Made by a program: the position numbers and the translations under genes
The notes under the pieces: model-generated
The model's input: the letters and a program-made list of their open reading frames with translations, nothing else
Databases searched by the model: none
What the model was told of the DNA's origin: nothing
Source: Victivallales bacterium
GTDB taxonomy: Bacteria; Verrucomicrobiota; Lentisphaeria; Victivallales; UBA1829
Assembly (NCBI GenBank): GCA_045594005.1
Contig: JAZNXT010000015.1
Location: forward strand, 13,418-77,417
Length of the DNA: 64,000 nucleotides
Direction of reading: 5' to 3'
Shown here: positions 42,550 to 63,961 of the stretch, in pieces
Layout of the letters: each line of letters opens with the position of its first letter
How positions within the stretch are numbered: position 1 is the first letter of the stretch

Positions 42550-42594
42550 TTGTCGCAGTTTTGTCGCACCGTTCATCTGCGTCATTTTGTCGCA
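42550..42594 (+). promoter_or_regulatory. Three direct copies of TTGTCGCA upstream of the clpB sigma54 promoter (candidate activator sites)
   Basis: TTGTCGCA at 42550-42557, 42561-42568 and 42587-42594. Degenerate TTTGTCA at 42532 and 42650. Partial inverted copy TGCGTCA at 42578. Confidence 0.4.
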
Positions 42595-42625
42595 TATTTC
42601 ATCTTCTTTCTGCAAAAATCTGTAT

Positions 42626-42641
42626 TGGCACGCCTTTTGCT
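42626..42641 (+). promoter_or_regulatory. sigma54 (-24/-12) promoter upstream of clpB
   Basis: TGGCACGCCTTTTGCT matches TGGCAC-N5-TTGC(A/T) exactly; GG (42627-28) and GC (42639-40) are separated by 10 nt; 48 nt upstream of the clpB ATG. Confidence 0.7.
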
Positions 42642-42688
42642 TTTATCTGTTTGTCAAAACAAACATCAACCAAAAGGAGATTTTGACT

Positions 42689-45310
42689 ATGGACATGCAG
42701 AAACTCACAGAAAAATCCCGCGCCGCCATGATGCGCGCACAGGAAATCGCATTGGAACACGGCAATCACGAGATCACCGGGGCTCATTTGCTTTATGCTT
42801 TGCTCACACAGGATGAAGGGTTGATCCCCTCTCTTTTCAAACACATGGGACTTTCTGCGGCAGATGCCGCCGTGAAAGCCGGACAGGAGATCGGCAAACT
42901 TTCCAGTGTTTCCGGACCGGGCGCACAGCAGCCCCACACCTCCCGGGAGTTCAGCGAAATTTTGATCGCGGCAAAGAACAATGCGGAATCCATGAAAGAT
43001 GAATATATCAGCGTGGAACATCTTTTCCGGGGGATCATGGAAAAATCGCCCGCCTGCCGGACTCTTCTTCAGCAGATGGGGGTGACGGAAGACACATTTC
43101 TCAAGGCATTGATGGCGGTACGCGGCAATCAGCGCGTTACCAGTGAAACGCCGGAAGCCGCCTTTGAAGCATTGGAAAAATACGGAAAAGATCTGACACG
43201 CCTTGCCGCCGATGATAAACTTGATCCCGTGATCGGCAGAGATGATGAGATCCGCCGTGCCATCCAGATCCTTGCCCGCCGTACCAAAAACAACCCTGTT
43301 CTCATCGGGGAACCGGGTGTGGGCAAGACTGCCATTGTGGAAGGACTGGCTGTGCGTATGGTCCGCGGAGATGTGCCGGAATCTCTGAAAAACAAACGGA
43401 TCATTGCGCTGGATATGGGCGCACTCATTGCCGGAGCAAAATACCGGGGCGAATTTGAAGAACGGTTGAAAGCTGTCCTGAAAGAAGTGGCATCTGCCAA
43501 CGGTGATATTATTCTGTTTATTGACGAACTGCATACCGTGGTGGGTGCCGGTGCCTCCGAAGGCAGTATGGATGCAGGAAATCTGCTGAAACCCATGCTG
43601 GCACGGGGCGAACTGCATTGCATCGGTGCGACCACGCTGGATGAATACCGTAAATATATCGAAAAGGATGCTGCGCTGGAACGCCGTTTTCAGGCGATCC
43701 TCGCGGCGGAACCGGATGTGGAGGATACCATTGCCATTTTGCGCGGACTCAAAGAACGCTATGAGATCCATCATGGCGTCAAGATCCGCGACGGTGCAGT
43801 GGTGGCGGCGGCGACTCTTTCCGATAAATATATTTCCGACCGTTTCCTGCCGGATAAAGCCATTGACCTGATGGATGGAGCCGCAGCAAAACTGCGCACG
43901 GAAATCGATTCCTGTCCTGTGGAGATCGACGAACTGGAACGCAAAGCCATGCGGTTGGAAATCGAACTTTCCGCCTTGAAAAAGGAAAAAGACGACGCTT
44001 CCAAAAAACGCCGTGCCGATCTGGAAAAAGAATTGGCTGATGTGAAAGAAAAAGTCCATTCCTTCCGCGCGGAATGGGATGCGGAAAAACGCGCCATTGA
44101 TGAATCCCGCACCTTGCGGGAAAGTCTGGAGATCGCCAAAGCAAAACTGGATAAAGCGGAACGGGAATCCGATCTTGAACGGGCGGGCGAACTGCGTTTT
44201 TCTGTGATCCCCGGTCTGGAAAAACAGATCGCTGATGCCAATAAACGCGCGTCGCAGGAACGGAATCTGCTCAAAGAGGAAGTCACCGAGGAAGATATTG
44301 CGGAGATCGTGAGCCGCTGGACTCATATTCCGGTGGCGAAACTGGTGCAGAGTGAACGGGAAAAACTCCTTCATTTGAGCGATGAACTCCATAAACGGGT
44401 GATCGGTCAGGATGAAGCCGTGGACGCAGTGGCAGATGCCGTCCTGCGCAGCAGAGCAGGCTTGAAAGATCCCAAACGCCCCGGTGCAAGTTTTATTTTT
44501 CTCGGACCTACCGGTGTGGGAAAAACGGAACTGGCACGCACACTTGCGGAAGAATTGTTCGACGACGAACGCGCCATGGTGCGGATCGATATGAGTGAAT
44601 ACATGGAAAAACACACTGTGTCCCGTCTCATCGGTGCCGCTCCCGGATATGTGGGATTCGATGAAGGCGGTCAGCTCACGGAAGCAGTCCGGCGCAAACC
44701 CTATTGCGTGCTGCTTTTTGATGAGATCGAAAAAGCACATCCCGATGTGTTCAATATCTTTCTGCAGATTTTGGATGACGGACAGCTCACAGATTCCCAC
44801 GGCAGAACGGTGAACTTCAAAAACACCATCATCATTATGACCAGCAACATCGGTAGTGATCTGCTGCTGGATGCTGCCAGCGGTTCAAAAGACGGCAGTT
44901 TCGATTCGGAAGCACTGCGTCCGGAGTTGATGAAACTCCTGCGCACACATTTCCGTCCGGAATTCCTGAACCGTGTGGACGCCACGCTCATTTTCAAACC
45001 GCTCACAAAAGATCAGATCCGCAGTATTCTGGATCTGCAGATCGCTCATGTGGCGGCACGGCTGGCTGATCAGGGGATCGCGCTGGAAGTGGACGAAGCC
45101 GCAAAAGATCTGATGGCAGCGGAAGGATACGATCCCGGATTCGGCGCACGGCCGATCAAACGCGTGGTGGTGAAAGAGATCGAAACGCCGGTTTCCCGTA
45201 TGATCATCAGCGGCATGGTAAAAGGCGGCATGGTGATCAAAGCGGGTGTGAATACGGAAGGCTCCGCCCTTGTCTTCACTCCTGTGGAAAAGAATGAAGA
45301 GCGCGTTTGA
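42689..45310 (+). CDS. clpB: ATP-dependent chaperone/disaggregase ClpB
   Basis: 873 aa with Clp N domain, two AAA+ modules ([16 protein letters not shown]) and a long coiled-coil middle domain. Start set at ATG 42689 behind AAGGAGA; upstream extension rejected. Confidence 0.95.
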
Positions 45311-45378
45311 TTTTCCCGTTTCAGCGTGTATATTATACGCTTGTGCGATTATTAACAGAAAAATGAAGGTGACTTATT

Positions 45379-46062
45379 ATGGACCGGGACGAAGATAAAA
45401 AGATCAACGAAGAAGCTGTTGCAGAAGAAAATACTGCTGCGGCAGAAGAAGAAACGGCGTCAACGCCGGAAACGGAAAATGCCGGGATCGCGGAGGAAAA
45501 AAAGAAAAACTCCTGGAAGATCTTCGGCGGTAAAGATAAAAAGGAAGAAAAGAAAGAACAGACTCCGGAAGAACGGATCAATGAATTGACCGGAAAACTG
45601 GCAGAAGCGGAAAAACTGCGTCTGCTCGCTTTGGCGGAAATGGACAATCAGCGCAAACGCGCGGCGAAAGAACGGGAAAATATGCGGTTGAATATTACAC
45701 AGGATACCGTGATGCCCTTTTTGCAGGTGTTCGACTTTTTCACCATGGCGGTCAAATCCGCACAGCAGAGTCAGAATCTGGATGCCCTGCTTCAGGGCAT
45801 GCAGATGATCCAGCAGCTTTTTGATAAAGCGTTGGATGAACTGGGTGTGGAAAAGATCGAAGCGGTCGGCAAAAAATTTGATCCTGCGCTTCACGACGCA
45901 AAAGAACAGCGTCCTTCCGATACCGTTCCCGAAGGGATCGTGATCGAACAGTGGAACACCGGCTTCAAATTCGGAGACCGTCTGATGAAACCGGCTATGG
46001 TGATCGTCAGCTCCGGCAAAGAAAAAACGGAACCGGCAGCGGAGCAGGAAACGGAAGGCTGA
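45379..46062 (+). CDS. grpE: Nucleotide exchange factor GrpE
   Basis: 227 aa with an acidic/Lys-rich N-terminal tail, then LLALAEMDNQRKRAAKERE...FLQVFDFF...GVEKIEAVGKKFDPALHDA. Confidence 0.85.
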   Translation: MDRDEDKKINEEAVAEENTAAAEEETASTPETENAGIAEEKKKNSWKIFGGKDKKEEKKEQTPEERINELTGKLAEAEKLRLLALAEMDNQRKRAAKERENMRLNITQDTVMPFLQVFDFFTMAVKSAQQSQNLDALLQGMQMIQQLFDKALDELGVEKIEAVGKKFDPALHDAKEQRPSDTVPEGIVIEQWNTGFKFGDRLMKPAMVIVSSGKEKTEPAAEQETEG

Positions 46063-46084
46063 TCTTTCAGAATCGAGGTGAAAG

Positions 46085-47053
46085 ATGGCAACAAATGATT
46101 ACTATGCGGCATTGGGTGTCAATAAAACTGCCAGTGCCGATGAAATCAAAAAAGCATACCGGAAACTTGCGGTGAAATATCACCCGGATAAAAATCCCGG
46201 TGATAAAAATGCGGAAGAAAAATTCAAAGAGATCTCCCGCGCTTACGAAGTTTTGAGCGATCCGGAAAAACGCAAACAGTATGACCAGTTCGGTGCCGAT
46301 TTCTTTGAAAAAGGCGGCATGGGCGGCGGCGCGTACAATGGCGGAAATCCTTTCGGCGGTGCCGGCGGTTTCCACGGCGGATTCAGCGATCCCCGGGATC
46401 TGTTCAGCCAGATCTTCGGCAATATGTTCGGAGGCGGCGGCATGGGCGGCATGGGCGGTGGATTCCACCGGAACGCCGCACAGAAGGGAGCCGATCTTCA
46501 GACGGCTATAACCATTGATTTTGAAGATGCGGTCCTCGGTGCAACCAAAAAAATCGCCATCAATGCCCCCGGCGGAAAACGGGAATTGCAAATGAATATC
46601 CCGCCCGGCGTGGACGACGGATCAAAACTGCGTCTTGCCGGAAACGGTGAAGCCGGAATCAACGGCGGACCGAAAGGGGATCTTTATGTGACGGTGAAGA
46701 TTGCGCCTCACGATGTTTTTACCCGGGATGGCACGGATATTATCTGCGAGATCCCCGTTCCGCTGATGACCGCTCTTTCCGGCGGCGTGATCGATGTCCC
46801 CACCATTTCCGGAAAAACCCGGATCAAGGTCGCTCCCGGTACACAGAGCGGCACGATGATGCGGCTCCGCGGCAAAGGTATGCCCGCATTGAAAGGCGGC
46901 GCCAGAGGCGATGAATTGATCCGGATCATGGTGGAAACGCCATCCAATCTGACAAAAGAACAGCTTGCGGCACTGGAATCGCTGAATCTGACGGAACAGA
47001 ACAGCCCGAAGCAACAGGAATTTCTGAAACGGGCAGCCCGGTTCCTGAAATAA
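46085..47053 (+). CDS. J-domain co-chaperone without zinc-finger domain (class B, CbpA-like)
   Basis: J domain [36 protein letters not shown], Gly/Phe/Met-rich linker and C-terminal substrate-binding domains. No CxxCxGxG repeats; a single Cys in the whole protein. Confidence 0.8.
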
Positions 47054-47076
47054 CTTTTTTTTGAAAGACCCCTTCT

Positions 47077-47559
47077 ATGGCAAAAAAAGAACAACAGCAG
47101 AATGACGGCGGAAACGGCGTGATCGCGCAAAACCGTAAAGCACGGCATGATTACGAGATCCTGGAATCCATGGAAGCCGGGATCGAACTGCGCGGCACGG
47201 AAGCCAAAAGCTGCCGTCTTCATTCCGTACAGCTGCAGGACGCATTTGCACGGATCGAAAACGGCGAACTTTTTGCGTTCGGTATCCATATTTCCCCCTA
47301 CGCATTCGGGAACCGGTACAATCATGAACCGGCGCGGCGGCGGAAATTGCTGATGCACAAACGGGAGATCCTGCGTCTTTTTTCCCGCGTCCGGGAAAAA
47401 GGCTGTGCCCTGATCCCTTTGAAAATGTATATGAAAAACGGCAGAGTCAAGGTGGAACTGGGTGTGGCACGCGGCAAAACCTATGAAGATAAACGCGAAA
47501 CATTGAAAAAACGGCAGGATGATCTGGAAGCCCGCCGCAATCTGGGAGCAAAACGATGA
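47077..47559 (+). CDS. smpB: SsrA-binding protein
   Basis: 160 aa with IAQNRKARHDYEILESMEAGIELRGTE and a basic C-terminal tail. Confidence 0.9.
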   Translation: MAKKEQQQNDGGNGVIAQNRKARHDYEILESMEAGIELRGTEAKSCRLHSVQLQDAFARIENGELFAFGIHISPYAFGNRYNHEPARRRKLLMHKREILRLFSRVREKGCALIPLKMYMKNGRVKVELGVARGKTYEDKRETLKKRQDDLEARRNLGAKR

Positions 47560-49049
47560 TCTTTGAATCCGCTCTTTTTAAACGGTCCGTACGGGGCAAT
47601 ATCTGGGAAGTGATCGTAATGGCGTTCCCGCTGATCCTGGCATCTGCGGCACATTCCATCAACCTTTTTGTGGACAGACTTATGCTTCAGCATTTTTCTG
47701 AAGATGCCATGAGTGCCGCGTTTCCCGCCGGATTGACCAGTTTCGCACTCTCCTGTTATTTTGTGGGAACTGTGGGGTATGCCAACAGCTTTGTGGCTCA
47801 ATATTTCGGAGCAAAAATGTATCACCGCGTGGGTGCTGCAGTCTGGCAGGCGATCTATATGGCATTATTGGGCGGACTTTTTGCCATCGGGCTGACTTTC
47901 TTTGCCGAGGAGATTTTTGACTTTTTCGGTCACGAAGAACATCTGCGGGAAATGGAAGTGACCTATTTCCGTCTGCTGGGCTGGGGGACCGTGGCATATC
48001 TGCTGGTGATCGCCATGCTCTCCTTCTGGGGAGGTCAGGGAAAAACACACATGGTCATGTTTTTTGACCTGATCATCACTGCAGGAAATATTCCCCTCAA
48101 TGCCATGCTTATCTTCGGTTGGAAAACGCCGTTTTTTGAGATCCCCTCCATGGGTGTGGTCGGTGCCGCGCTGGGGACGGTCGGTGCATCGTTGATCGGG
48201 TTGATCGTGATGGCGTGTCTGTTCTTCCTGCCGAAAAAGAACCGGGCGCGGTACCGTACCGGAAATATGAAACCGGATAAAGAACTTTTCCGGCGTCTTT
48301 TCAAATTCGGCGGACCCAATGGCGTACAGCTGTTTCTTGACCTTGCCGCATTCAATGCGTTTGTGATCCTGCTGGGGAAGATCGGGACGACTGAAATGAA
48401 CTCCTCCGGCGTGGCTTTTTCCCTGAATTCGCTGGCGATGATCCCCATGTTCGGATTGGGTCAGACCGTATCCATTCTGGTGGGGCAGGGCGTAGGCGGC
48501 AACGATATCCCGTATGCAGAACGGGCGGTAAAAAGCGCGCGGTTCTGGCTGTATCTGATGATGGTTGTGATCGGGATCCTTTTTGTGGTGGTACCGAAAC
48601 CGGCATTGACTCTGTTCAATCTGATACCCGGTACGGAAGCATACGATATGGCGAAGATCATGCTATGGTTCATTACCGCGTATCTGCTTTTTGATGCAAC
48701 GAGTATTCTGTACGGCAGTGCTGTAAAAGGTGCGGGTGATACCAAATTTTCCATGTGGATCGGTTCCACTTTTGCGTGGGTGTTCTACGGTCTGCCCTGT
48801 CTGGCGGTCTATTATATCTTTACCAGACCTTCCGTGATCGAAAAGATGGGAAAAGACCGTGCCGACGCTTACAATCTCTGGATCCTCTGGACCATCTGTG
48901 TGGTTTATATTATGATCCTGGGTGTGACATTCTATCTGCGGTATCGCGGGGGGAAGTGGAAAAAGATGAAAGTCATCGAAAGCGAAGCCAACGATCATAC
49001 CCGTGGCGCGATCCCGAAAGAAGTGGGTGTGGACGCTTATCTTCCGTAA
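47556..49049 (+). CDS. MATE family efflux transporter
   Basis: 497-aa polytopic membrane protein (12 predicted hydrophobic segments by eye) with MATE-like N terminus IWEVIVMAFPLILASAAHSINLFVDRLML. ATG overlaps the smpB stop (ATGA). Confidence 0.75.
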   Translation: MIFESALFKRSVRGNIWEVIVMAFPLILASAAHSINLFVDRLMLQHFSEDAMSAAFPAGLTSFALSCYFVGTVGYANSFVAQYFGAKMYHRVGAAVWQAIYMALLGGLFAIGLTFFAEEIFDFFGHEEHLREMEVTYFRLLGWGTVAYLLVIAMLSFWGGQGKTHMVMFFDLIITAGNIPLNAMLIFGWKTPFFEIPSMGVVGAALGTVGASLIGLIVMACLFFLPKKNRARYRTGNMKPDKELFRRLFKFGGPNGVQLFLDLAAFNAFVILLGKIGTTEMNSSGVAFSLNSLAMIPMFGLGQTVSILVGQGVGGNDIPYAERAVKSARFWLYLMMVVIGILFVVVPKPALTLFNLIPGTEAYDMAKIMLWFITAYLLFDATSILYGSAVKGAGDTKFSMWIGSTFAWVFYGLPCLAVYYIFTRPSVIEKMGKDRADAYNLWILWTICVVYIMILGVTFYLRYRGGKWKKMKVIESEANDHTRGAIPKEVGVDAYLP

Positions 49050-49097
49050 AAGGAATGTAAAATTTCCTGAAAAATCAACTTTTTTTATTTTTTTCAC

Positions 49098-49126
49098 TTG
49101 ACATTGTTTCAGAGCGGTGGTATTGT
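49098..49126 (+). promoter_or_regulatory. sigma70-type promoter of the ilv leader/operon
   Basis: TTGACA (49098-49103), 17-nt spacer, TATTGT (49121-49126), preceded by T-rich tracts. Motif match only. Confidence 0.5.
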
Positions 49127-49161
49127 AAAAAAGAATTTTGAGAATTGGAACAAGGAAAACA

Positions 49162-49251
49162 ATGAAACAGTTTTTCAACAACATTAACAGCATTATTACG
49201 ATTATCGCCATCATTATTATTGGTTGCGGTACTGCCGGTTGCTGTTGTTGA
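49162..49251 (+). CDS. Candidate ilv leader peptide 1 (Ile-rich, 29 aa)
   Basis: SD AAGGA a few nt upstream. Translates to MKQFFNNINSIITIIAIIIIGCGTAGCCC with 8 Ile in 10 consecutive codons (49192-49221). Followed by a terminator. Confidence 0.6.
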   Translation: MKQFFNNINSIITIIAIIIIGCGTAGCCC

Positions 49252-49278
49252 GTATGACTTGAAGAAAAGAAGATTCAG

Positions 49279-49319
49279 ACCTCTCTGCGGTGATCAGCCA
49301 CAGAGAGGTTTTTTCTTTT
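49279..49319 (+). terminator. Intrinsic terminator (attenuator 1)
   Basis: ACCTCTCTG (49279-49287) pairs with CAGAGAGGT (49301-49309), plus inner GG/CC pairs, followed by TTTTTTCTTTT. Confidence 0.75.
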
Positions 49320-49331
49320 ACGGGATTTGAA

Positions 49332-49487
49332 ATGAAAATGAATATGATGAAGTCTGAAAACAGTTTTGCTTATGCTCCGGTGCATTGTGATGCAGCCGGA
49401 TCTTCCATCATGTTCATTGCCGCCATTATTATGATCGCCATTATTATTATCAGCATCATTATTATTACGCCCCCCGGCACGGCATAA
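49332..49487 (+). CDS. Candidate ilv leader peptide 2 (Ile-rich, 51 aa; start uncertain)
   Basis: MKMNMMKSENSFAYAPVHCDAAGSSIMFIAAIIMIAIIIISIIIITPPGTA with 13 Ile in 20 consecutive codons (49407-49466). Weak SD; alternative in-frame starts exist (GTG 49290, ATG 49410). Confidence 0.55.
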   Translation: MKMNMMKSENSFAYAPVHCDAAGSSIMFIAAIIMIAIIIISIIIITPPGTA

Positions 49488-49517
49488 CATTCGATCCATC
49501 AGAACACATTGAAACAC

Positions 49518-49559
49518 AGCCCTGCCGGAGAAAAGATTTCCGGCAGGGCTTTTTTTATT
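49518..49559 (+). terminator. Intrinsic terminator (attenuator 2) immediately upstream of ilvB
   Basis: AGCCCTGCCGGA (49518-49529) pairs with TCCGGCAGGGCT (49539-49550), 12 bp with a 9-nt loop, followed by T7. Confidence 0.85.
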
Positions 49560-49586
49560 CAACCCAAAATGAAAGCATACAGAAAA

Positions 49587-51242
49587 ATGAAAAGATCAGG
49601 AGCAGCCATTGTAATTGAGGCATTATGCCGCAACAGCGTAGAAACGGTATTCGGTTATCCGGGTGGTGCAGTCCTGCCCATTTATGATGAACTGTATAAA
49701 AACGCCCACCGTATCAACCATGTGCTGTGCGCTCACGAACAGAATGCAGCCCATGCCGCAGACGGCTTTGCCCGTGTCACCGGAAAACCGGGTGTGGTCA
49801 TCGCCACCAGCGGTCCGGGCGCGACAAATCTTGTGACGGGGATCGCCAATGCTTATCTTGACAGTGTTCCGCTGGTTGCCATCACCGGCAATGTGGCAGT
49901 GCCGCTGTTGGGCAGAGACAGCTTTCAGGAAGTGGATATCACCGGGATCACCCGGGAGATCGTCAAGCATAATTTTTCCGTCAGCGATGTCCGGGAATTA
50001 TCCGGAACATTGGATGCGGCTTTTGAGATCGCCTCATCCGGTCGTCCCGGACCCGTGCTGGTGGATATCCCCAAAAGCGTTCAGACGGATCTGTGCGATG
50101 AATCGGAATTTGTGCGTCAGGAATTGTTTTTCAATGAATTACCGGAAGTCGATCTGACTGCTGCTGTGGCGGCAGTGACGGATTCCAAACGCCCGTTGAT
50201 CTATGCGGGAGGCGGCGTCGTTGCCGCCGGTGCGAGCCGGGAATTGCAGGCTCTGTCAGAAAAGATCTCTGCGCCGGTTGCCTTCAGCATGATGGGCTTG
50301 ACGGCATTGCCTGCGGATCATCCGGTAAATCTGGGGATGTGCGGTATGCACGGTTCGCAGAGTTCCGCAAAATTGCAGAGTGAATGTGATCTGATCATTG
50401 CACTGGGTGTCCGTTTTTCAGACCGTGCCACCGGAAATACTGCGAAATATAAAGAAGGCAGAAAAATAATCCATGTGGATATCGACTGTGCGGAGATCAG
50501 CAAAAATACAGCCACGGATATTGAATTGTGCGGAGATGTGAAAGATGTCCTGCAGAAACTTCTGGCAGTTTTGCCGCAGCAGGATCGTCCGGAATGGAAA
50601 AACAGAGTGGCAGAAGCCAAAAAACTGGATGTGCTGCCGGAAGAAAAAACGCTGACTCCACGGACTCTCCTGAAAACGGTTGCCAATTTTTGTAACGACG
50701 ATACCGTTGTCGCCACCGATGTGGGACAGCATCAGATGTGGACCATGCAATATTTCCCGTTCAAATCGCCCCGGACGCTGCTGACTTCCGGCGGACTCGG
50801 CACGATGGGATTCGGGCTGGGTGCTGCGATCGGCGGCTGCATTGCAAACGACCGGAAACGGACTGTGCTTTTTACCGGAGACGGTTCTTTCGGGATGAGC
50901 CTTCAGGAATTGGTGACGGCAGTTTCCCAAAATCTGCCTCTTCTGATCGTGATCTTCAATAATGGTGTTCTGGGAATGGTGCGGCAGTGGCAGACCATGT
51001 TTTATGAAAAGCATTATTCTTCCACGACATTGAACCGGGAAACTGATTTTCCCGCATTGGCAAAGGCATTCGGTGCGGAAGGGAAAAAGATCACTTCCGT
51101 ATCTGAATTGGAACATGCACTGAAAGATCTTGCGTCAGATGTGCCGACTGTGCTGGATTGTCAGCTGAATATGGATGAATTTGTATTGCCCATGATCCCC
51201 CCCGGTGGAAGTGTGCAGGATTTAATAACCAGGAGAAACTGA
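49587..51242 (+). CDS. ilvB: Acetolactate synthase large subunit (biosynthetic)
   Basis: SGAAIVIEALCRNSVETVFGYPGGAVLPIYDEL and the ThDP motif GDGSFGMSLQEL...NNGVLGMV. Start at ATG 49587 (alternative 49569). The track start 49509 lies inside the terminator and is rejected. Confidence 0.9.
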   Translation: MKRSGAAIVIEALCRNSVETVFGYPGGAVLPIYDELYKNAHRINHVLCAHEQNAAHAADGFARVTGKPGVVIATSGPGATNLVTGIANAYLDSVPLVAITGNVAVPLLGRDSFQEVDITGITREIVKHNFSVSDVRELSGTLDAAFEIASSGRPGPVLVDIPKSVQTDLCDESEFVRQELFFNELPEVDLTAAVAAVTDSKRPLIYAGGGVVAAGASRELQALSEKISAPVAFSMMGLTALPADHPVNLGMCGMHGSQSSAKLQSECDLIIALGVRFSDRATGNTAKYKEGRKIIHVDIDCAEISKNTATDIELCGDVKDVLQKLLAVLPQQDRPEWKNRVAEAKKLDVLPEEKTLTPRTLLKTVANFCNDDTVVATDVGQHQMWTMQYFPFKSPRTLLTSGGLGTMGFGLGAAIGGCIANDRKRTVLFTGDGSFGMSLQELVTAVSQNLPLLIVIFNNGVLGMVRQWQTMFYEKHYSSTTLNRETDFPALAKAFGAEGKKITSVSELEHALKDLASDVPTVLDCQLNMDEFVLPMIPPGGSVQDLITRRN

Positions 51243-51244
51243 AA

Positions 51245-51493
51245 ATGGAACATTTTATCGTGGAACTTACTGTGGCAAATCATTGCGGTGTACTCAACCG
51301 TATCACCGGACTTTATGCAAAGCGCAAATACAATATTGATTCGCTGACCGTGCATGAAAGCAATGATCCTGCCCTTTCGATCATGCGGATCGTATCCCGC
51401 GGCGATGCTGCGGTCCAGGTGCAGATGACAAGGCAGCTGCGCAAACTTTTTGATGTGAAAACCGTTGTTCTCCTGAACAATTCAATGCTCTGA
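51245..51493 (+). CDS. ilvN: Acetolactate synthase small subunit, short ACT-domain-only form
   Basis: 82 aa with [29 protein letters not shown] (ACT domain); starts 2 nt after the ilvB stop. Confidence 0.75.
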
Positions 51494-51527
51494 TATAACA
51501 AAAACTCCAAGGAAAGGAAAGAAAAAA

Positions 51528-52517
51528 ATGAGCAAAATGTATTATAACGAAAACTGCAACCTTGAACTCCTCAAAAATCTGACTGTCGCCGTGATCGGTT
51601 ACGGAAGCCAGGGGCATGCCCATGCACAGAATCTGCGTGACAGCGGCGTGAATGTGGTGGTGGGGCTTTATGAAAACTCCAAGAGTGCCGCTGTTGCAAA
51701 AGCAGACGGTTTTGAAGTCCTCAATACGCCCGATGCCGTCAGAAAAGCCGATTGGGTGATGATGCTGGTGAACGATGAAAAAATGCGTTCCATCTACGAA
51801 AACGGTGTGAAAGATAATCTTCGTCCGGGTATGACTTTGAGTTTTGCTCACGGCTTCAATGTTCATTTCAAAGAGATCGTTCCGCCGGATTTCGTCAATG
51901 TGGTTATGATCGCACCCAAAGGTCCCGGTCATACGGTGCGCAGTCAGTTCGTTGAGGGCAGAGGTGTTCCCTGTCTGGTGGCAGTTCAGCAGGATGCTTC
52001 CGGAAATGCCATGGATCTGGCTCTTGCTTATGCGTGCGGACTCGGTGCAGGCCGTGCGGGGATCCTGGAAACGACTTTCAGAGAAGAAACGGAAACGGAC
52101 CTTTTCGGCGAACAGGCAGTTTTGTGCGGCGGAGTTACCGCATTGATGCAGGCAGGCTTTGAAACGCTTGTGGAAGCCGGATACAAGCCGGAAAGTGCCT
52201 ATTTTGAGTGTATCCACGAAATGAAACTCATCATCGATCTGGTGGTCAAAGGCGGATTTTCCTTTATGCGTTACAGCATCAGCGATACTGCTGAATATGG
52301 TGATTACAATACCGGACACCGTCTGATCACCGATGCCACCAAAGCCGAGATGAAAAAAGTGCTTGCCGAGATCCAGGATGGCACATTTGCCCGTAAATGG
52401 CTGAAAGAAAATGCCGATGGCAGACCGCTTTTCAGCAAACAGCGTGAAGCAGCCAAAACGCATCAGTTGGAAACAGTCGGAGCTGAACTCCGCGCTAAAA
52501 TGAATTGGAACAAATGA
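51528..52517 (+). CDS. ilvC: Ketol-acid reductoisomerase (class I)
   Basis: 329 aa with [29 protein letters not shown] and [11 protein letters not shown]. Confidence 0.95.
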
Positions 52518-54145
52518 TGAACAGCGATAAACTGACAACAGGAGTATCTGCCGCTCCCCAGCGTGCTTTGCTTGGTGCGCTGGGGTACACCCCGGAACAG
52601 ATGAAACGCCCTCTGGTCGGAGTGGTCAACAGCTTCAACGAAGTCGTTCCCGGGCATACCCATTTGCAGCTGATCGCCCGGGCTGTGAAGGATGGGGTCC
52701 TTGCTGCCGGCGGAACCCCTATGGAATTCAATACCATTGCCGTGTGTGACGGATTGGCGATGGGGCATGACGGGATGCACTATTCCCTTGTGTCCCGGGA
52801 ATTGATCGCCGACAGCATCGAATGTATGGTCAAAGCTCACTGTTTTGATGCTCTGGTTTTTATCCCGAACTGTGATAAAGTCGTGCCCGGTATGCTGATG
52901 GCGGCAGCGCGGTGCAATCTGCCATCCATCTTCGTTTCCGGCGGTCCGATGCTGTCACTTGACGGCAGGGATCTGAATACCGTTTTTGAAGCAGTGGGTG
53001 CAGTCAATGCCGGAAAAATGAGCGAAGCGGAACTCGCGGAAGTGGAGTGTTCCAGTTGTCCCGGCTGCGGTTCCTGTTCGGGAATGTTTACTGCCAATTC
53101 CATGAATTGTCTTTGCGAAGCGATCGGGATGGCACTCCCCGGAAACGGTACGATCCCGGCGGTTTATTCACAGCGCATCCATCTTGCCAAACACGCGGGA
53201 ATGCAAGTTCTGGAGCTGCTTAAACGCGACCTCCGCGCCCGTGATATCATGACGGCAAAAGCGTTTCATAATGCGTTGACAGTGGATATGGCTCTTGGTT
53301 GTTCCACCAATACTGCATTGCATCTGCCTGCCATTGCCGCCGAAGCCGGAGTGGAGTTCGATCTCCATACCGTAAATGAAATCAGCGCACGCACACCCAA
53401 TTTGTGCCGTCTTGCTCCGGCAGGGAAACACCACATGCAGGATCTTCACCGTGCCGGAGGTGTTCCGGCTGTGATGAAAGAAGTTTCTCATCTGCTGAAT
53501 CCGGATTGCCTGACCGTTTCCGGTGTAACGCTCGGCGAACTCATTGCCCATGCGGAAGTCAGAGACCGTACAGTTATTCAACATTATACCGATGAGGGCG
53601 GACTTGCGGTATTGTACGGCAATCTTGCGCCGGATGGCGGGATCGTCAAACGGTGTGCCGTTCGCAAAGAAATGCTCCGTTTCACCGGCAGAGCAAGAGT
53701 TTTCGAGTGTGAAGAAGATGCTGTCAAAGCCATCCTTTCCGGAAAAATCGTCAAAGGAGATTGCGTGGTGATCCGCAATGAAGGTCCTGCCGGTGGTCCC
53801 GGTATGCGGGAGATGCTTTCTCCCACCAGTGCCATTGCCGGAATGGGACTGGATGCAGATGTGGCACTCATCACAGACGGCAGATTTTCCGGTGCGACCA
53901 GAGGTGCCGCGATCGGACATATTTCTCCTGAAGCGGTTTCCGGCGGTACGATCGCACTGGTGGAAGAAGGCGATTTAATAAAAATCGATATTCCGGATTA
54001 TTCACTGGAATTGCTGGTGGATGATAAAACTCTTGAGGCAAGACGGGCAGAAAAAGTATTCTCCCCTCAACGGCAGTTGACCGGATATCTCAAACGCTAT
54101 GCGGCACTGGTTTCCTCTGCGGACAAAGGAGCAAAGTTATGCTGA
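52514..54145 (+). CDS. ilvD: Dihydroxy-acid dehydratase
   Basis: [59 protein letters not shown]. First ATG (52514) overlaps the ilvC stop (ATGA). Confidence 0.95.
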
Positions 54146-55317
54146 CACTGGATAAAGTTTACAAGGCAAGTCATCTGCTGAAAAGTGTGGCTCGCTATAC
54201 CGATATGATCGAAAGCAACGGCTTGACCGATGATTGTCAGCTGCGTTTGAAAGCGGAAAATTTACAGTTGACCGGATCCTTCAAACTGCGTGGTGCATTT
54301 TTCAAGATCGCCAATCTGCCGCAGGATGGCAGAGAGATCGTTGCCTGTTCTGCGGGCAATCACTCGCAAGGTGTTTCCCTCGCGGCGGGAAAATTGCATC
54401 GTAAAGCGGTCGTTTTCATGCCAAGTATCGCTCCCATATCCAAGGTGGAAGCAACCAAGAAACTGGGTGCTGAAGTCCATCTGGTGGATGGCGTTTACGA
54501 TGACGCTTATCTGGCGGCAGAAAAATATTGCAAAGAGCATGACAGCATTTTTGTTCATCCCTTTGATGATGAAGATGTGATTGCCGGTCAGGGATCCATC
54601 GCGCTGGAAATTCTGGAACAATATCCCGAAGTCGATACGGTCCTCGTTCCTGTGGGCGGCGGCGGACTGGTTTCCGGGGTGGCATTCACTCTGAAACAAC
54701 TGAATCCGGCGTGTAAAGTTTACGGCGTTCAGGCAGAAGGCGCACCGGGGATGTGCAAAGCGTTCACTGAAAAACACGGTGTTACGCTGGAAAAAGTTTC
54801 CACTTTTGCCGATGGGATCGCCGTAAAAACACCCGGCACACTCACACGGGATTTGTGCTGTAAATATGTTGACGGCATCGTTACTGTGAGCGATGACGAG
54901 ATCGCCACTGCCATTTTGACTTTGATGGAAAAACAGAAACTGGTTGCCGAAGGAGCCGGAGCGGCAGGCGTTGCCGCCGTGCTGGCAAAGAAACTTGATC
55001 TCGCCGGAAAAAATGTCTGTGCCGTGATCTCCGGCGGAAATATCGATGTCAATATCCTCTCCCGGGTCATCAACCGCGGCTTGCTCTCAAGCGGCAGAGT
55101 GGCGGAGTTGAAAATCGCCATGCTGGATAAGCCCGGTCAGTTGCGGGAGGTGTCAACGATCATTGCCGACTGCGGAGCCAATGTCATTCAGGTACGGCAC
55201 GATCCCGGCGGAGAACACGCAGACATCATCGGTTGTTATCTCCATATCAAAATGGAAACAAGAAACTTTGAACAGTTGAAACAGATCCGTCAGGCTCTTG
55301 CAGCTGCGGGTTATTAG
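54139..55317 (+). CDS. ilvA: Threonine ammonia-lyase (threonine dehydratase) with single C-terminal ACT-like domain
   Basis: PLP lysine motif [27 protein letters not shown]; C-terminal regulatory domain of about 80 aa; overlaps the ilvD end by 7 nt. Confidence 0.85.
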
Positions 55318-55341
55318 ATTTTGAATTGAAAGGAATTGAAT

Positions 55342-55728
55342 ATGAATACCATCGTATCGACATCCAATGCTCCGGCAGCCGTCGGACCGTACTCACAGGC
55401 AGTCAGATCCGGCGATCTGCTCTTTTGTTCCGGACAGATCGCTCTTGATCCGGCAAGTGGCAATTTGACCGGAAACGATATAAAAAGTCAGACGGAACAG
55501 GTAATGAAAAATATTTCAGCGGTGCTTGCCGCCTCCGGAGCGACTTTTGCGGATGTGGTAAAGACGACCTGTTTTCTTGCAGATATCAACGATTTTGCAG
55601 AATTCAATGCCGTTTACGCTCAATATTTCACCGGGAAACCGGCAAGAAGCTGCGTCGCCGCAGCCGCCTTGCCTAAAGGAGCATTGGTCGAAGTGGAAGT
55701 TATTGCAGTTGTCGGAGCAGAAAAATGA
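55342..55728 (+). CDS. ridA: RidA/YjgF family reactive-enamine deaminase
   Basis: 128 aa with APAAVGPYSQAV, LFCSGQIALDP, ARSCVAAAALPKGALVEVEVIA. ATG 55342 follows AAAGGAA. Confidence 0.85.
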   Translation: MNTIVSTSNAPAAVGPYSQAVRSGDLLFCSGQIALDPASGNLTGNDIKSQTEQVMKNISAVLAASGATFADVVKTTCFLADINDFAEFNAVYAQYFTGKPARSCVAAAALPKGALVEVEVIAVVGAEK

Positions 55729-55776
55729 TCTTGATTCTCCGGGATCAGGAGCGGACCACATGGTGAAGATGCACAG

Positions 55777-55798
55777 ACGGGAAAAATCCGTTTTTTTT
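55777..55798 (+). terminator. Weak terminator-like hairpin after ridA
   Basis: ACGGG (55777-55781) pairs with TCCGT (55787-55791), followed by T8. Short stem. Confidence 0.35.
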
Positions 55799-55883
55799 CA
55801 TCATCCAACTTTTAAAATGAAAAAAATGTGATATAGTTCCATCGTGAGAAAAAATCTGTAAGAATATGCGCGATGGAGAAAAT

Positions 55884-58472
55884 ATGGCAGAATCCGATAA
55901 AATCACACCCATGATGAAACAGTATTTGCAAGCCAAAGCGGAAACCCCGCCCGGCTCGATCCTGCTGTTCCGGCTGGGAGATTTCTATGAAATGTTTTTC
56001 GATGATGCCAACCGTGCTGCACCCATTCTGGAAGTGGCTTTGACAAAGCGGGCAGGGTATCCCATGTGCGGCGTGCCGTATCATGCACTGGAAGCATATC
56101 TGCCGAAACTGCTGGAAGCCGGAGTGAAAGTTGCCATCGCGGAACAGATGGAGGATCCGAAACTTGCCAAAGGGATCGTAAAGCGCGCTATCACCAGAGT
56201 GATCACGCCCGGCACGATCCTGGATTCCAATTTTCTCAAACCGGGCGTGAGCAACTTTCTCTGTTCTGTCTGCATGAGTAAAGACCGTTTCGGGTTCTCC
56301 TGGCTGGATATCAGTACCGCAGAATTCAAAACTTGTGAACTTGCCAGCAGAGAGGAACTGGAAAGCGAACTGCAGAAACTGCAGCCGCGGGAATGTCTGC
56401 TGCCGGAATCCCTCCATGAACTCTGGACTGCCGCAAAAGGATTCCCGTTCACACACAAACCAGTGTTGTGGACTCCGGTGGACGACTGGATCTTCTCTCT
56501 GGAAAATACAGAAGATCTGCTGAAACGCCAGCTCCATGTTTTATCTCTGGACGGATTCGGGTTACGGGATGCGCCTCTGGCTGTTCGCGCTGCCGGTGCC
56601 GTGCTGCATTATGCGTCGGAAAATCTGCGGCACAATACAGGGCATATCCGCGCCATCCAATATGACAACTGCGGTGAATTTCTCGGTTTGGATCCTATTT
56701 GCCAGCGCAATCTGGAACTGGTGGAATCGCTCCACGGCGGCAATCGGGAAGGAACGCTTCTGCAGATATTGGACAAGACCGCCACGGCCATGGGAAGCCG
56801 TCTTATGCGGTCCTGGATCCTGAAACCTTTGTGCAACCGGGATCTGATCGTGGCGCGTCAGGATGTGGTGGGTTTGTTCCGGGATGATCCTTTTACTCTT
56901 GCGGAGATCCGGGAATGTCTGCGTGCCGTCCGTGATATTGAGCGATTGACCTCCAAATTGAATGTAGGTGCGTTCAACGGCAGGGATATGCTGGCTCTCG
57001 GAAGCAGTCTGGAAATGCTGCCGGGTCTGCAATCGATCCTGAATATCTGCGATCTGCCTTTGATCGAACGGTTGAAAAACAATATTCAAGCCACACCGGA
57101 ACTCGTGAACCGTATCGCACAGGCGATCGCCGACGATCCTCCGGCAACGACGACCGATGGCGGTCTGATCCGGACCGGTTATCACGCAGAACTGGATGAA
57201 TTGCGTTCTGCCGCCGCAAACGGAAAAAGCTGGGTGGCGGAACTTCAGGCAAAGGAACAGGAACGCACCGGCATCAAATCATTGAAAGTCAATTACAATA
57301 AAGTGTTCGGATATTTTATCGAGGTTACAAAGAGCAATCTTTCTCTTGTCCCGGATAATTATTTGCGGAAACAGACCATGGCGAACGGCGAACGGTTCAT
57401 CACACCTGAACTCAAGGAAATGGAAAGCAAGATCCTCGGTGCGGAAGATAAAGCCAAAGCATTGGAAGCACAGCTGTTTGAAGAATTGCGTCTGTTCGCT
57501 CAGACTTTTACCGGTACGATCCAGAGCGCGGCAAAGGCGATCGCCGAACTGGATGTGCTGTGCGCACTGGCAGAATGTGCCGCAAAATACAATTATTGCC
57601 GACCCCGAGTGCAGGACGATGATGTATTGCGGATCATCGGCGGCAGACACCCCGTGATCGAACCGAAAATGGATACGGAGCGTTTCGTCCCCAACGATAC
57701 CTGTCTGGATGGTGATAATAATCGTATGATGATCATTACCGGTCCGAATATGGCAGGAAAATCCACTTATATCCGTCAGACGGCATTGCTGGTCATCATG
57801 GCGCAGATGGGATCGTTCATCCCCGCAGATGAGGCGCAGATCGGAATCGCAGACCGCATCTTCACCCGCGTGGGCGCAATGGACGATATCGCACGCGGTC
57901 AAAGTACCTTCATGGTGGAAATGCTGGAAACCGCCAATATCCTCAACCATGCCACCAGCCGCAGTATTGTGATCCTGGATGAGATCGGACGCGGCACCAG
58001 TACATTCGACGGTTTGTCTATCGCGTGGGCTGTGGCGGAATATCTGTTGGAGCATCCCGTCTGCCGGACACAGTTCGCAACGCATTATCACGAATTGACA
58101 GAACTGGCTCTTACCCGGAAAGGCGTGAAAAATTATAATGTGGCAGTCCGCGAATACGGCGATCAGATCGTGTTCCTGCGGCAGATCGTGCCGGGGGCTG
58201 CCGATAAAAGTTACGGGATCCATGTTGCAAAACTGGCGGGACTTCCTGTGGAAGTCATCACCCGTGCCCGCGAGATATTGGAAAATCTGGAAAACAATGC
58301 CATCGGCGAAGCCGGTCTGCCGGCGATCATGCTTGCCCGTGAGGTGGGGCCTGCAGTTCATTACGATGCACAGGATGGCAAAGCGAAGACCCGCAGAAAA
58401 ACAGTCAAACAGGGAAAAGCGGACAACGACAGCGATGAAGACGCTTTCCTCCAGTTGTCGCTGTTCGATTGA
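55884..58472 (+). CDS. mutS: DNA mismatch repair protein MutS
   Basis: TPMMKQYLQAKAETP...LLFRLGDFYEMFFDDA, Walker A GPNMAGKST, DEIGRGTSTFDG. ATG 55884 follows GGAGAA (alternative ATG 55866). Confidence 0.95.
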   Translation: MAESDKITPMMKQYLQAKAETPPGSILLFRLGDFYEMFFDDANRAAPILEVALTKRAGYPMCGVPYHALEAYLPKLLEAGVKVAIAEQMEDPKLAKGIVKRAITRVITPGTILDSNFLKPGVSNFLCSVCMSKDRFGFSWLDISTAEFKTCELASREELESELQKLQPRECLLPESLHELWTAAKGFPFTHKPVLWTPVDDWIFSLENTEDLLKRQLHVLSLDGFGLRDAPLAVRAAGAVLHYASENLRHNTGHIRAIQYDNCGEFLGLDPICQRNLELVESLHGGNREGTLLQILDKTATAMGSRLMRSWILKPLCNRDLIVARQDVVGLFRDDPFTLAEIRECLRAVRDIERLTSKLNVGAFNGRDMLALGSSLEMLPGLQSILNICDLPLIERLKNNIQATPELVNRIAQAIADDPPATTTDGGLIRTGYHAELDELRSAAANGKSWVAELQAKEQERTGIKSLKVNYNKVFGYFIEVTKSNLSLVPDNYLRKQTMANGERFITPELKEMESKILGAEDKAKALEAQLFEELRLFAQTFTGTIQSAAKAIAELDVLCALAECAAKYNYCRPRVQDDDVLRIIGGRHPVIEPKMDTERFVPNDTCLDGDNNRMMIITGPNMAGKSTYIRQTALLVIMAQMGSFIPADEAQIGIADRIFTRVGAMDDIARGQSTFMVEMLETANILNHATSRSIVILDEIGRGTSTFDGLSIAWAVAEYLLEHPVCRTQFATHYHELTELALTRKGVKNYNVAVREYGDQIVFLRQIVPGAADKSYGIHVAKLAGLPVEVITRAREILENLENNAIGEAGLPAIMLAREVGPAVHYDAQDGKAKTRRKTVKQGKADNDSDEDAFLQLSLFD

Positions 58473-62083: not shown

Positions 62084-63602
<1,519 letters not shown>

Positions 63603-63708
63603 TAAGGAGCGAGACGATCGCCCGGCAACTCAGACAATCAACAAACTGAGGTGGCCGCCGGAGCCGAGTCGTCCAGGAGTAAACGTCAGGGGAGACTCTG
63701 ATGAATAC

Positions 63709-63738
63709 GGGTTCATTGCACTATTCAATTTTTCGAGG
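63709..63738 (+). other. 3' strand of the 16S processing stem in the ITS
   Basis: GGGTTCATTGCACTATTCAATTTTTCGAGG is the complement of 61912-61941. Followed by a second boxA-like GTGTTCATTACAAAG (63739-63753). Confidence 0.75.
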
Positions 63739-63786
63739 GTGTTCATTACAAAGATCATTACCGTAATTGGTAAGGAAGAGTTTTAA

Positions 63787-63863
63787 GGGGCCTTAACTCA
63801 GTTGGCTAGAGTGTCTGCTTTGCAAGCAGAATGTCGAGGGTTCGAATCCCTTAGGCTCCACCA
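63787..63863 (+). tRNA. tRNA-Ala (anticodon TGC)
   Basis: GGGGCCTTAACTCAGTTGGCTAGAGTGTCTGCTTTGCAAGCAGAATGTCGAGGGTTCGAATCCCTTAGGCTCCACCA with anticodon loop TTTGCAA, the G3-U70 pair, and encoded CCA. Confidence 0.9.
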
Positions 63864-63884
63864 GTTTTTTCTGAATTGGACCTT

Positions 63885-63961
63885 GGGCGTATAGCTCAGT
63901 TGGTTAGAGCGCGTCCCTGATAAGGACGAGGTCCTTGGTTCAACTCCAAGTACGCCCACCA
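63885..63961 (+). tRNA. tRNA-Ile (anticodon GAT)
   Basis: GGGCGTATAGCTCAGTTGGTTAGAGCGCGTCCCTGATAAGGACGAGGTCCTTGGTTCAACTCCAAGTACGCCCACCA with anticodon loop CTGATAA and encoded CCA. Confidence 0.9.

Follow-up and report, generated by a model that had tools for sequence, protein, structure and literature searches.

Leader-peptide attenuation of branched-chain amino acid operons is well established in Enterobacteria. In E. coli and Salmonella, the ilvGMEDA and ilvBN operons are preceded by the short leader open reading frames (ORFs) ilvL and ivbL, respectively, which carry a run of branched-chain codons in a transcript capable of mutually exclusive 1:2, 2:3, and 3:4 pairings. The GC-rich 3' end of the leader ORF serves as the antiterminator strand, and an intrinsic terminator is located directly before the first ilv gene. 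Each operon has one attenuator, with control codons for Ile, Val, and Leu mixed in ilvL and codons for Val and Leu in ivbL. To our knowledge, nearly all characterized cases of leader-peptide attenuation come from Proteobacteria, Actinobacteria, and a few Firmicutes, again with one attenuator per operon. Here we analyze the plus-strand interval that separates ilvB from a MATE transporter gene (47556-49049) in a 64-kb stretch of DNA (the window) from a gut Lentisphaeria bacterium of the order Victivallales. This interval was found to contain two leader-peptide modules, each consisting of an Ile-rich small ORF and an intrinsic terminator, which very probably act as ribosome-mediated transcription attenuators arranged in series on one transcript.

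The window leader resembles ilvL and ivbL in its short ORFs with branched-chain codon runs, in its mutually exclusive pairings, in the terminator directly before the first ilv gene, and in the GC-rich 3' end of the leader, which forms the antiterminator strand (...IIIITPPGTA here and ...IIIPPCGAA in ilvL). It differs in having two attenuators in series under one promoter and in the use of Ile codons only (Ile and Val in relatives) with essentially no Leu, and it shows neither sequence homology to ilvL and ivbL nor an Rfam match. The mechanism itself is textbook; what is new is its doubled, Ile- or Ile/Val-specific form in Lentisphaeria, and not a new kind of system. Serial arrangement as such is familiar from tandem riboswitches and tandem T-boxes, in which two serial terminator switches respond to the same ligand and are thought to provide a more digital response with lower leak; those switches sense through an RNA aptamer or a leader that binds tRNA, whereas in the window leader a translating ribosome would be the sensor.

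Other described leaders share only a part of this layout. In actinobacteria (Corynebacterium, Mycobacterium, and Streptomyces), leaders of the ilvBNC operons have been predicted, partly by the same comparative logic as used here, or studied (PMC1262725, PMC11857589, PMC10272879). They likewise place a candidate leader peptide and a terminator right before ilvB outside of Proteobacteria, but they are single modules with mixed Ile, Val, and Leu codons, the terminator overlaps the ORF, and the sequences are unrelated. The ilv leader peptide of Staphylococcus is also a single module with mixed codons (PMC5794164). In the Salmonella mgtCBR leader, two short ORFs, mgtM and mgtP, are located in one long leader, and their translation controls downstream transcription (PMC3641672). 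However, the signals read by the two ORFs are not the same (ATP in one case, proline or osmotic stress in the other), and the operon that they control serves virulence and Mg2+ transport, whereas the window leader has two full ORF-plus-terminator units for the same amino acid in front of a biosynthetic operon. A literature search for tandem attenuators returned only mgtCBR and synthetic circuits. Another one, for attenuation or leader peptides in Verrucomicrobia or the Planctomycetes-Verrucomicrobia-Chlamydiae (PVC) superphylum, found no published description. The first-pass annotation of this locus, made from the sequence alone, had supposed the mechanism to be uncharacterized in the PVC group, which agrees with that search; similar single-module leaders do occur in Clostridia (see below), so the mechanism is not isolated to PVC bacteria.

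To evaluate conservation, the ilvB upstream regions of 12 distinct relatives, with IlvB proteins 80-89% identical to that of the window, were collected by an IlvB protein search and contig look-ups. The window IlvB itself is 100% identical to NCBI and ENA metagenome-assembly proteins, and the 80-89% matches are proteins of Lentisphaeria or Lentisphaerae metagenome-assembled genomes (MAGs). A search of metagenome DNA with the back-translated leader motif FNNINSII gave 120 matches, all of them chance occurrences in AT-rich DNA.

The regulatory elements follow each other on the plus strand in the order promoter, leader ORF 1, terminator 1, leader ORF 2, terminator 2, and, about 30 nt further on, ilvB. 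The sigma-70-type promoter at 49098-49126 (TTGACA-17-TATTGT with an extended -10 TG, 10/12 matches in the promoter scan) had been noted in the first-pass annotation and was recovered at the same coordinates. Its counterpart, TTGAC/AA-N16-17-TGnTAtATT, is located approximately 30 nt 5' of the leader-1 ATG in every one of the 11 relatives with module 1, behind varied upstream genes. Between this promoter and ilvB (49127-49586), the plus-strand scan detected no promoter-like site, so the only one lies upstream of ORF1; this is in line with the earlier argument, made from the short distance between terminator 2 and the gene, that a separate ilvB promoter would not fit there. The promoter is thus predicted to drive the whole leader and the ilv operon. 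The gap between the T tract of terminator 1 and the start of ORF2 is 12-18 nt, and the two sensor-plus-terminator units with no promoter-like site between them make up a tandem arrangement, as far as it can be read from the sequence.

Leader ORF 1 (49162-49251, plus strand) has 29 codons encoding MKQFFNNINSIITIIAIIIIGCGTAGCCC and is preceded by the Shine-Dalgarno (SD) sequence AAGGA at 49153-49157, in the arrangement AAGGA-N5-ATG. Its run, I11-I20 (49192-49221), contains 8 Ile in 10 codons, with Val and Leu absent, and the translation agrees with the initial reading of this ORF; overall, its Ile codons are seven ATT and two ATC. Leader ORF 2 (49332-49487, plus strand; 51 codons from 49332) has the tail ...IMFIAAIIMIAIIIISIIIITPPGTA. 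Its run of 13 Ile in 20 codons (49407-49466; nine ATT and four ATC) was again described correctly at the outset and is followed by the end TPPGTA-stop, but the start assigned to it has to be corrected, since the conserved start codon, aligned in all relatives, is the second ATG, at 49338. Given the Ile content of 5.8% in the neighboring genes, the probabilities of at least 8 Ile in 10 codons and at least 13 in 20 are 5e-9 and 5e-12, respectively, and in a six-frame scan of the 64-kb window no further small ORF with an Ile run was found except the antisense image of ORF2. A chance ATT microsatellite was ruled out: the runs are in frame, have conserved non-Ile interruptions, and exchange Ile with Val or Ala across species.

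The choice of Ile codons is also unusual. Of the 22 in the two leaders, 16 are ATT and 6 are ATC, whereas the neighboring genes (42587-58472) use ATC 218 times, ATT 59 times, and ATA 8 times. Such use of the non-preferred, wobble-read ATT is expected if sensitivity to stalling has been selected, and it should sharpen stalling. Substitutions in the runs are exchanges between Ile, Val, and Ala, mostly at third and first codon positions, the third being the commonest. The stem-forming codons (FNNINS and GCGTAGCCC-stop) hardly vary across relatives at any of their three positions. The window also contains a 16S rRNA gene (62084-63601) followed by tRNA-Ala(TGC) and tRNA-Ile(GAT) genes (region 62084-63961), the latter encoding the tRNA expected to read the ATT and ATC codons of the leaders.

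In module 2, terminator 2 (49518-49556, plus strand; stem-loop 49518-49550) was detected by the terminator scan and consists of a 14-bp stem with 9 G-C pairs, a 5-nt loop, and a T7 tract, with a predicted free energy (dG) of -27.7. The stem is thus longer than the 12 pairs counted at first, and the T7 tract stands. In the 12 sequences, 93.9% of cells (individual pairs in individual sequences) in this stem are paired. The sequence CCGGCACGGC (49474-49483), formed by the last leader codons, is complementary at nine of ten positions to GCCCTGCCGG (49519-49528) in the left arm of the terminator. The resulting antiterminator, CCGGCACGGC x GCCCUGCCGG (49474-49528 in all; pairing dG -18.1), which excludes formation of the terminator, had been proposed at first sight, and its nine pairs are formed in 100% of cells in the 12 sequences. 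One of them shows a compensatory change from C-G to U-A (locus L003), matched also in the right arm of terminator 2. Against composition-matched shuffles of the upstream sequence, z ranges from -1.1 to -5.5. The strand stops 1 nt short of the stop codon (49485-49487); thus a terminating ribosome would mask it, and stalls at most Ile codons would leave it free.

The N-terminal half of ORF2 contains an additional hairpin, CCGGUGCAU / AUGCAGCCGG (49376-49400, plus strand; dG -13.4). Its CCGG core is invariant, and four pairs are changed on both sides although the encoded peptide varies. This could possibly be a pause or synchronizing hairpin. Pairing of its 3' strand with the module 2 antiterminator strand, considered as a 1:2 structure, is plausible in relatives but amounts to just 5 bp in the window and was not adopted. 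Further, leader 2 ends with Pro-Pro-Gly (window 49470-49478), which lies on the antiterminator strand. Pro-Pro-Gly is a known ribosome-stalling motif in the absence of elongation factor P, and it could hold the ribosome over this strand. The motif is not conserved, being replaced by PSG in L201 and SSG in L206, and may only reflect the pairing sequence CCCCCCGG.

In module 1, terminator 1 (49280-49319, plus strand; dG -22.1 kcal/mol) is an 11-bp stem formed by CCTCTCTGCGG (49280-49290) and CCACAGAGAGG (49298-49308), with the 7-nt loop TGATCAG, followed by TTTTTTCTTTT up to 49319. Because of one internal C.A mismatch it is missed by a simple terminator scan; the hairpin and T tract described by the first-pass annotation are nonetheless real. 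In relatives 94.0% of cells are paired, with compensatory changes in three pairs (eight cells), for instance UG/CA versus AC/GU. Upstream of it, folding predicts the module 1 hairpin, a 1:2 structure (49174-49252, plus strand; dG -24.2), in which the FNNINS codons pair with the GCCC-stop codons in an outer stem and an inner stem (49203-49231) surrounds the last Ile codons. In 11 sequences, 93.1% of cells pair, compared to 23-67% in slid controls; six pairs are changed on both sides, and the covariation score is reached by none of 500 column shuffles. This hairpin is predicted to be an anti-antiterminator or a pause structure.

The first-pass annotation had found no convincing antiterminator for module 1. 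Comparison of relatives yields a candidate 2:3 structure, which had been missed as it is weakest in this strain: UGCCGGUUGCUG (49233-49244), reading GGCUGGUUGCUG in relatives, pairs with CGGUGAUCAGCC (49288-49299) in a G-U-rich helix of 12-14 bp (49233-49299, plus strand), with additional pairing of GAG (49250-49252) with CUC (49281-49283). The target at 49288-49299 extends from the apical left arm of terminator 1 through its loop into the first bases of the right arm, and the antiterminator and the terminator are mutually exclusive. In 11 sequences, 96.7% of cells pair (22-61% in slid controls). One side varies in 10 of the 12 pairs with pairing retained, and one pair is compensatory. The duplex in relatives has a dG of -18 to -28 kcal/mol, with z from -2.8 to -5.0 against shuffles. 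A shorter version, of 8 bp plus 3 bp, was rejected, its z against shuffled sequence being about 0; the pairing is significant only when extended into the terminator loop and the first right-arm bases, and only in relatives. The strand 49233-49252 spans the stop codon (49249-49251), a position that would be masked by a terminating ribosome and left free by one stalled at 49192-49221.

Each module thus combines a small ORF, a codon run, a terminator, and an antiterminator strand as in a classical attenuator, and module 1 has in addition a clear 1:2 hairpin; the antiterminator can be recognized in module 2 of the window itself, whereas module 1, taken alone, has a candidate antiterminator in this strain. 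The two modules are similar in design, but a common origin is not claimed, as module 2 matches the module 1 covariance model at just 22-27 bits (E ~0.003-0.04), a score for which the AT-rich run, hairpin, and T tract, being generic features, could account. The region 49130-49590, the folding of which had been suggested as a check, is more stable than dinucleotide shuffles (z = -5.8). The stems were also expected to co-vary, and compensatory changes were indeed found in the module 1 hairpin, terminator 1, the ORF2 hairpin, and the module 2 antiterminator.

Both complete modules, in the same order, are present in 10 of the 12 relatives, in line with the serial arrangement originally proposed. 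The genes upstream of the promoter are of seven kinds, encoding MATE, NamZ, an AMP-binding enzyme, divergently transcribed leuA, an AraC regulator, a radical-SAM enzyme, and a DHH protein. Since the upstream genes differ while the promoter and the leader stay, the leader belongs to ilvB, and the Ile-rich ORFs, whose conservation had been named as a check, travel with ilvB and not with the upstream gene. In L213 (937-1265), about 330 nt are inserted between the two modules. ORF1 is kept in the 11 relatives with module 1, with Ile, Val, and Ala swaps within the run and one in-frame 3-nt indel. All indels between relatives in ORF2 are in frame too, and indels in both ORFs, between and within species, are multiples of three. 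In strains of the same species (L217-L219; 47 contigs, IlvB 99% identical), the leader-2 run is 15 nt shorter, lacking the five codons AIIMI (window 49420-49440), a difference that resembles slippage in frame, or a duplication, of CGCCATTATTAT; the shorter form is that of the common strain. Leader 1 of these strains has I19M, and in the left arm of their terminator 2 a C is changed to T, where a G-U pair is kept.

The initial description of both leaders as Ile-only is correct for this species and for the relatives closest to it. Other relatives add Val to both leaders, the extreme being L211 with 13 Val versus 10 Ile over its full leader-2 peptide, and Leu is almost absent from the regulatory runs. 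These patterns suggest that the clade senses Ile and Val without Leu, and that the pure-Ile state is a species-level feature.

We propose the following sequence of events. When Ile-tRNA(GAU) is charged, a ribosome that has reached the ORF1 stop codon (49249-49251) would cover 49233-49252, terminator 1 would form, and transcription would end. When charged Ile-tRNA is scarce, a ribosome stalled at 49192-49221 would block the 1:2 hairpin and free 49233-49252, which could then pair with the apical left arm and the loop of terminator 1 and allow polymerase to read through. On the transcripts that survive terminator 1, a new ribosome would start at 49338, and the hairpin at 49376-49400 may pause polymerase so that translation catches up. 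Stalling within 49407-49466 would leave CCGGCACGGC uncovered and able to tie up the left arm of terminator 2, whereas a ribosome at the stop codon 49485-49487 would mask CCGGCACGGC and let terminator 2 form. Only transcripts passing both checkpoints would reach ilvBNCDA. With two serial checkpoints, the basal leak is expected to approximate the read-through fraction of one terminator multiplied by that of the other, and Ile limitation should elicit a steeper response than it would with one module.

Several observations weigh against this model. In the window, the module 1 antiterminator has a dG of -15.3 (z = -1.6) compared with -22.1 for terminator 1, this being the weakest strain because of two synonymous changes, and its comparative support consists mostly of one-sided, G-U-tolerant change that is no better than chance in the column-shuffle control. 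Two modules are not obligatory: L202 (1105-1323) lacks module 1 and has module 2 alone, about 200 nt from ilvB, in front of an operon shortened to ilvB-ilvN-ilvA. In L214 (1248-1464), the structures of module 2, including its hairpins, are kept and the Ile run of leader 2 is lost. The SD sequence of ORF2 is weak (GGGA/AGGA-N6-ATG). Module 2 has no clear conserved 1:2 anti-antiterminator; the hairpin at 49376-49400 lies upstream of the Ile run, and it does not obviously tie up the antiterminator strand, so the role suggested for it above is a guess. Equilibrium folding retains both terminators whichever region is masked, and the model therefore depends on co-transcriptional kinetics; masking a ribosome footprint in such folding was dropped as a switch test, as terminator 1 is always kept, which says nothing about a kinetic switch. 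Finally, mutation of leader codons upstream of ilvB in Streptomyces is reported to have had no effect on regulation (PMC1262725); thus a leader-like look is no proof.

Some of these points would fit an arrangement in which only module 2 senses the amino acid, while module 1 is a constitutive partial terminator, an insulator that blocks read-through coming from the upstream gene, or a decaying duplicate in which the Ile run has ceased to be read. The weak module 1 antiterminator of this strain, its one-sided variation, and the fact that L202 manages without module 1 are all compatible with it. We consider this improbable, because conservation is stronger in module 1 than in module 2 (152-185 bits with the module 1 covariance model across the clade). 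The hairpin around the run of module 1 has the six compensatory pairs, and the run itself is conserved in its Ile and Val codons and lacks Leu. Further, its antiterminator is significant in 10 relatives, and the decayed module of L214 is module 2, not module 1. The main residual doubt about two attenuators in series is whether module 1 still responds in this strain.

Somewhat less probable still is control by a trans-acting factor, such as an RNA-binding protein, uncharged tRNA as in T-boxes, or Rho, with the Ile runs as incidental AU-rich spacers. The Streptomyces ilvB case cited above shows that leader-like elements can work differently. Here, however, the AU-rich runs are in frame, keep their Ile and Val codons, and avoid stop codons across all relatives, and both terminators are canonical intrinsic ones, which makes Rho unnecessary. 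No T-box or other Rfam family was matched, either in the window at E <= 10 or, at the gathering score, in the window and 18 related loci, 14 of which are among the distant ilvB loci considered below. T-box leaders can be set aside, the scanned upstream regions containing no T-box motif either, and riboswitches and other known RNA families do not match. The Thr_leader family (RF00506) gives sub-threshold matches of 22.2 bits (49178-49317) and 19.3 bits (49423-49558) with a gathering score of 55, which probably arise from a layout in common, a terminator placed after an ATT/ACN-rich run.

The least probable explanation, that the small ORFs encode functional hydrophobic micro-proteins (membrane or toxin-like peptides) and the hairpins are merely their terminators and have nothing to do with sensing of amino acids, accounts for the high hydrophobicity of both peptides, the 29-52 aa genes annotated by gene callers in several assemblies, and the C-terminal GCGTAGCCC and TPPGTA motifs kept at the peptide level, but these motifs coincide with RNA stem strands and are frozen even at synonymous positions, the ORF2 N-terminal peptide varies while the RNA hairpin is kept, the run length shifts by in-frame indels within one species, the enriched residue follows the pathway product (Ile/Val before ilvB and Leu before leuA), and the modules always have a promoter on one side and, on the other, a biosynthetic operon without a separate promoter.

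Tandem leaders of this type are not confined to ilvB. On the minus strands of L203 (585-945) and L206 (564-918), the divergently transcribed leuA gene has its own two tandem leader-plus-terminator modules with Leu-rich peptides, for example MNRRFFNSISF...ALILLLIGLLLIALLLLIRSGGMRLC (runs MKQILINLITLPGLELILLERAVSSCG and MNRRFFNSISF...LILLLIGLLLIALLLLIRSGGMRLC). In the first leuA leader, the counterpart of the module 1 antiterminator is a perfect helix of 9 bp, and the ilv module 1 covariance model matches this leader with 37.6 bits in L206 and 27.4 bits in L203. Thus at least two operons of the clade carry a doubled leader, and in each the codons correspond to the amino acid produced.

Single leaders are more widespread. 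Among more distant ilvB loci (L004-L080), taken from Clostridia, Oligosphaera ethanolica, and other Lentisphaeria, approximately 36 of 77 have a single mixed Ile/Leu/Val leader ORF with a terminator before ilvB. Most of these, which include the closest ilvB homologues in many Clostridia, come from the gut or rumen, and the cultured O. ethanolica DSM 24202 is represented too; examples are L007 (406-567), L043 (2783-2942), and, in O. ethanolica DSM 24202, L050 (2801-2966). They are similar to the window leader in having an SD-ATG start, a hairpin around the run, and a terminator 15-100 nt before ilvB, and the module 1 covariance model recognizes two of them, L007 and L043, at 40-41 bits; the single leaders differ in having one module per operon and abundant Leu codons. 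A MAG labelled Verrucomicrobia (L038, 376-830) contains a promoter followed by two tandem Ile/Val leader ORF-plus-terminator modules before ilvB, the only tandem case outside the window's clade among the scanned loci.

The operon predicted to be regulated by this leader, ilvB-ilvN-ilvC-ilvD-ilvA (49587-55317, plus strand), was assigned by NCBIfam equivalog matches above curated cut-offs for all five genes: ilvB (49587-51242), ilvN (51245-51493), ilvC (51528-52517), ilvD (52505-54145), and ilvA (54139-55317). Its products are Ile and Val, and it includes the Ile-specific threonine deaminase gene ilvA. An alternative in-frame ATG of ilvB is located at 49569, 18 nt 5' of the conserved start at 49587; the longer form (557 aa) is annotated in some relatives, and in this strain neither start has a strong SD sequence. 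The acetolactate synthase small subunit (51245-51493) has just 82 aa, corresponding to the ACT domain alone, and is of equal length in all relatives.

For specialists, the tandem leader adds a variant and holds little surprise, and the textbook picture is unchanged. Nevertheless, it would extend leader-peptide attenuation to Lentisphaerae and the PVC superphylum, and the distant loci suggest that gut Clostridia have a group of ilvB leaders not yet annotated, with no Rfam family matching in the scanned loci. In annotation terms, the "hypothetical proteins" of 29-52 aa upstream of ilvB in these MAGs would be regulatory leaders. Control of the branched-chain pathway appears to be split by amino acid, Ile/Val versus Leu, unlike the multivalent control in Enterobacteria. 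The locus offers a natural case of two attenuators for the same signal in series, both on ilvB and on leuA, and could serve as a test bed for a sharper, lower-leak response. Tandem leader-peptide attenuators may even be a lineage-wide design rule in gut Lentisphaeria and at least one Verrucomicrobia MAG, codon-matched on ilvB (Ile/Val, no Leu) and leuA (Leu) and multiplicative, low-leak, and ultrasensitive, with in-frame slippage of the ATT runs tuning their length between strains, a proposal that we regard as evenly balanced between being right and being wrong. If it holds, this arrangement would be the ribosome-based counterpart of tandem riboswitches and tandem T-boxes.

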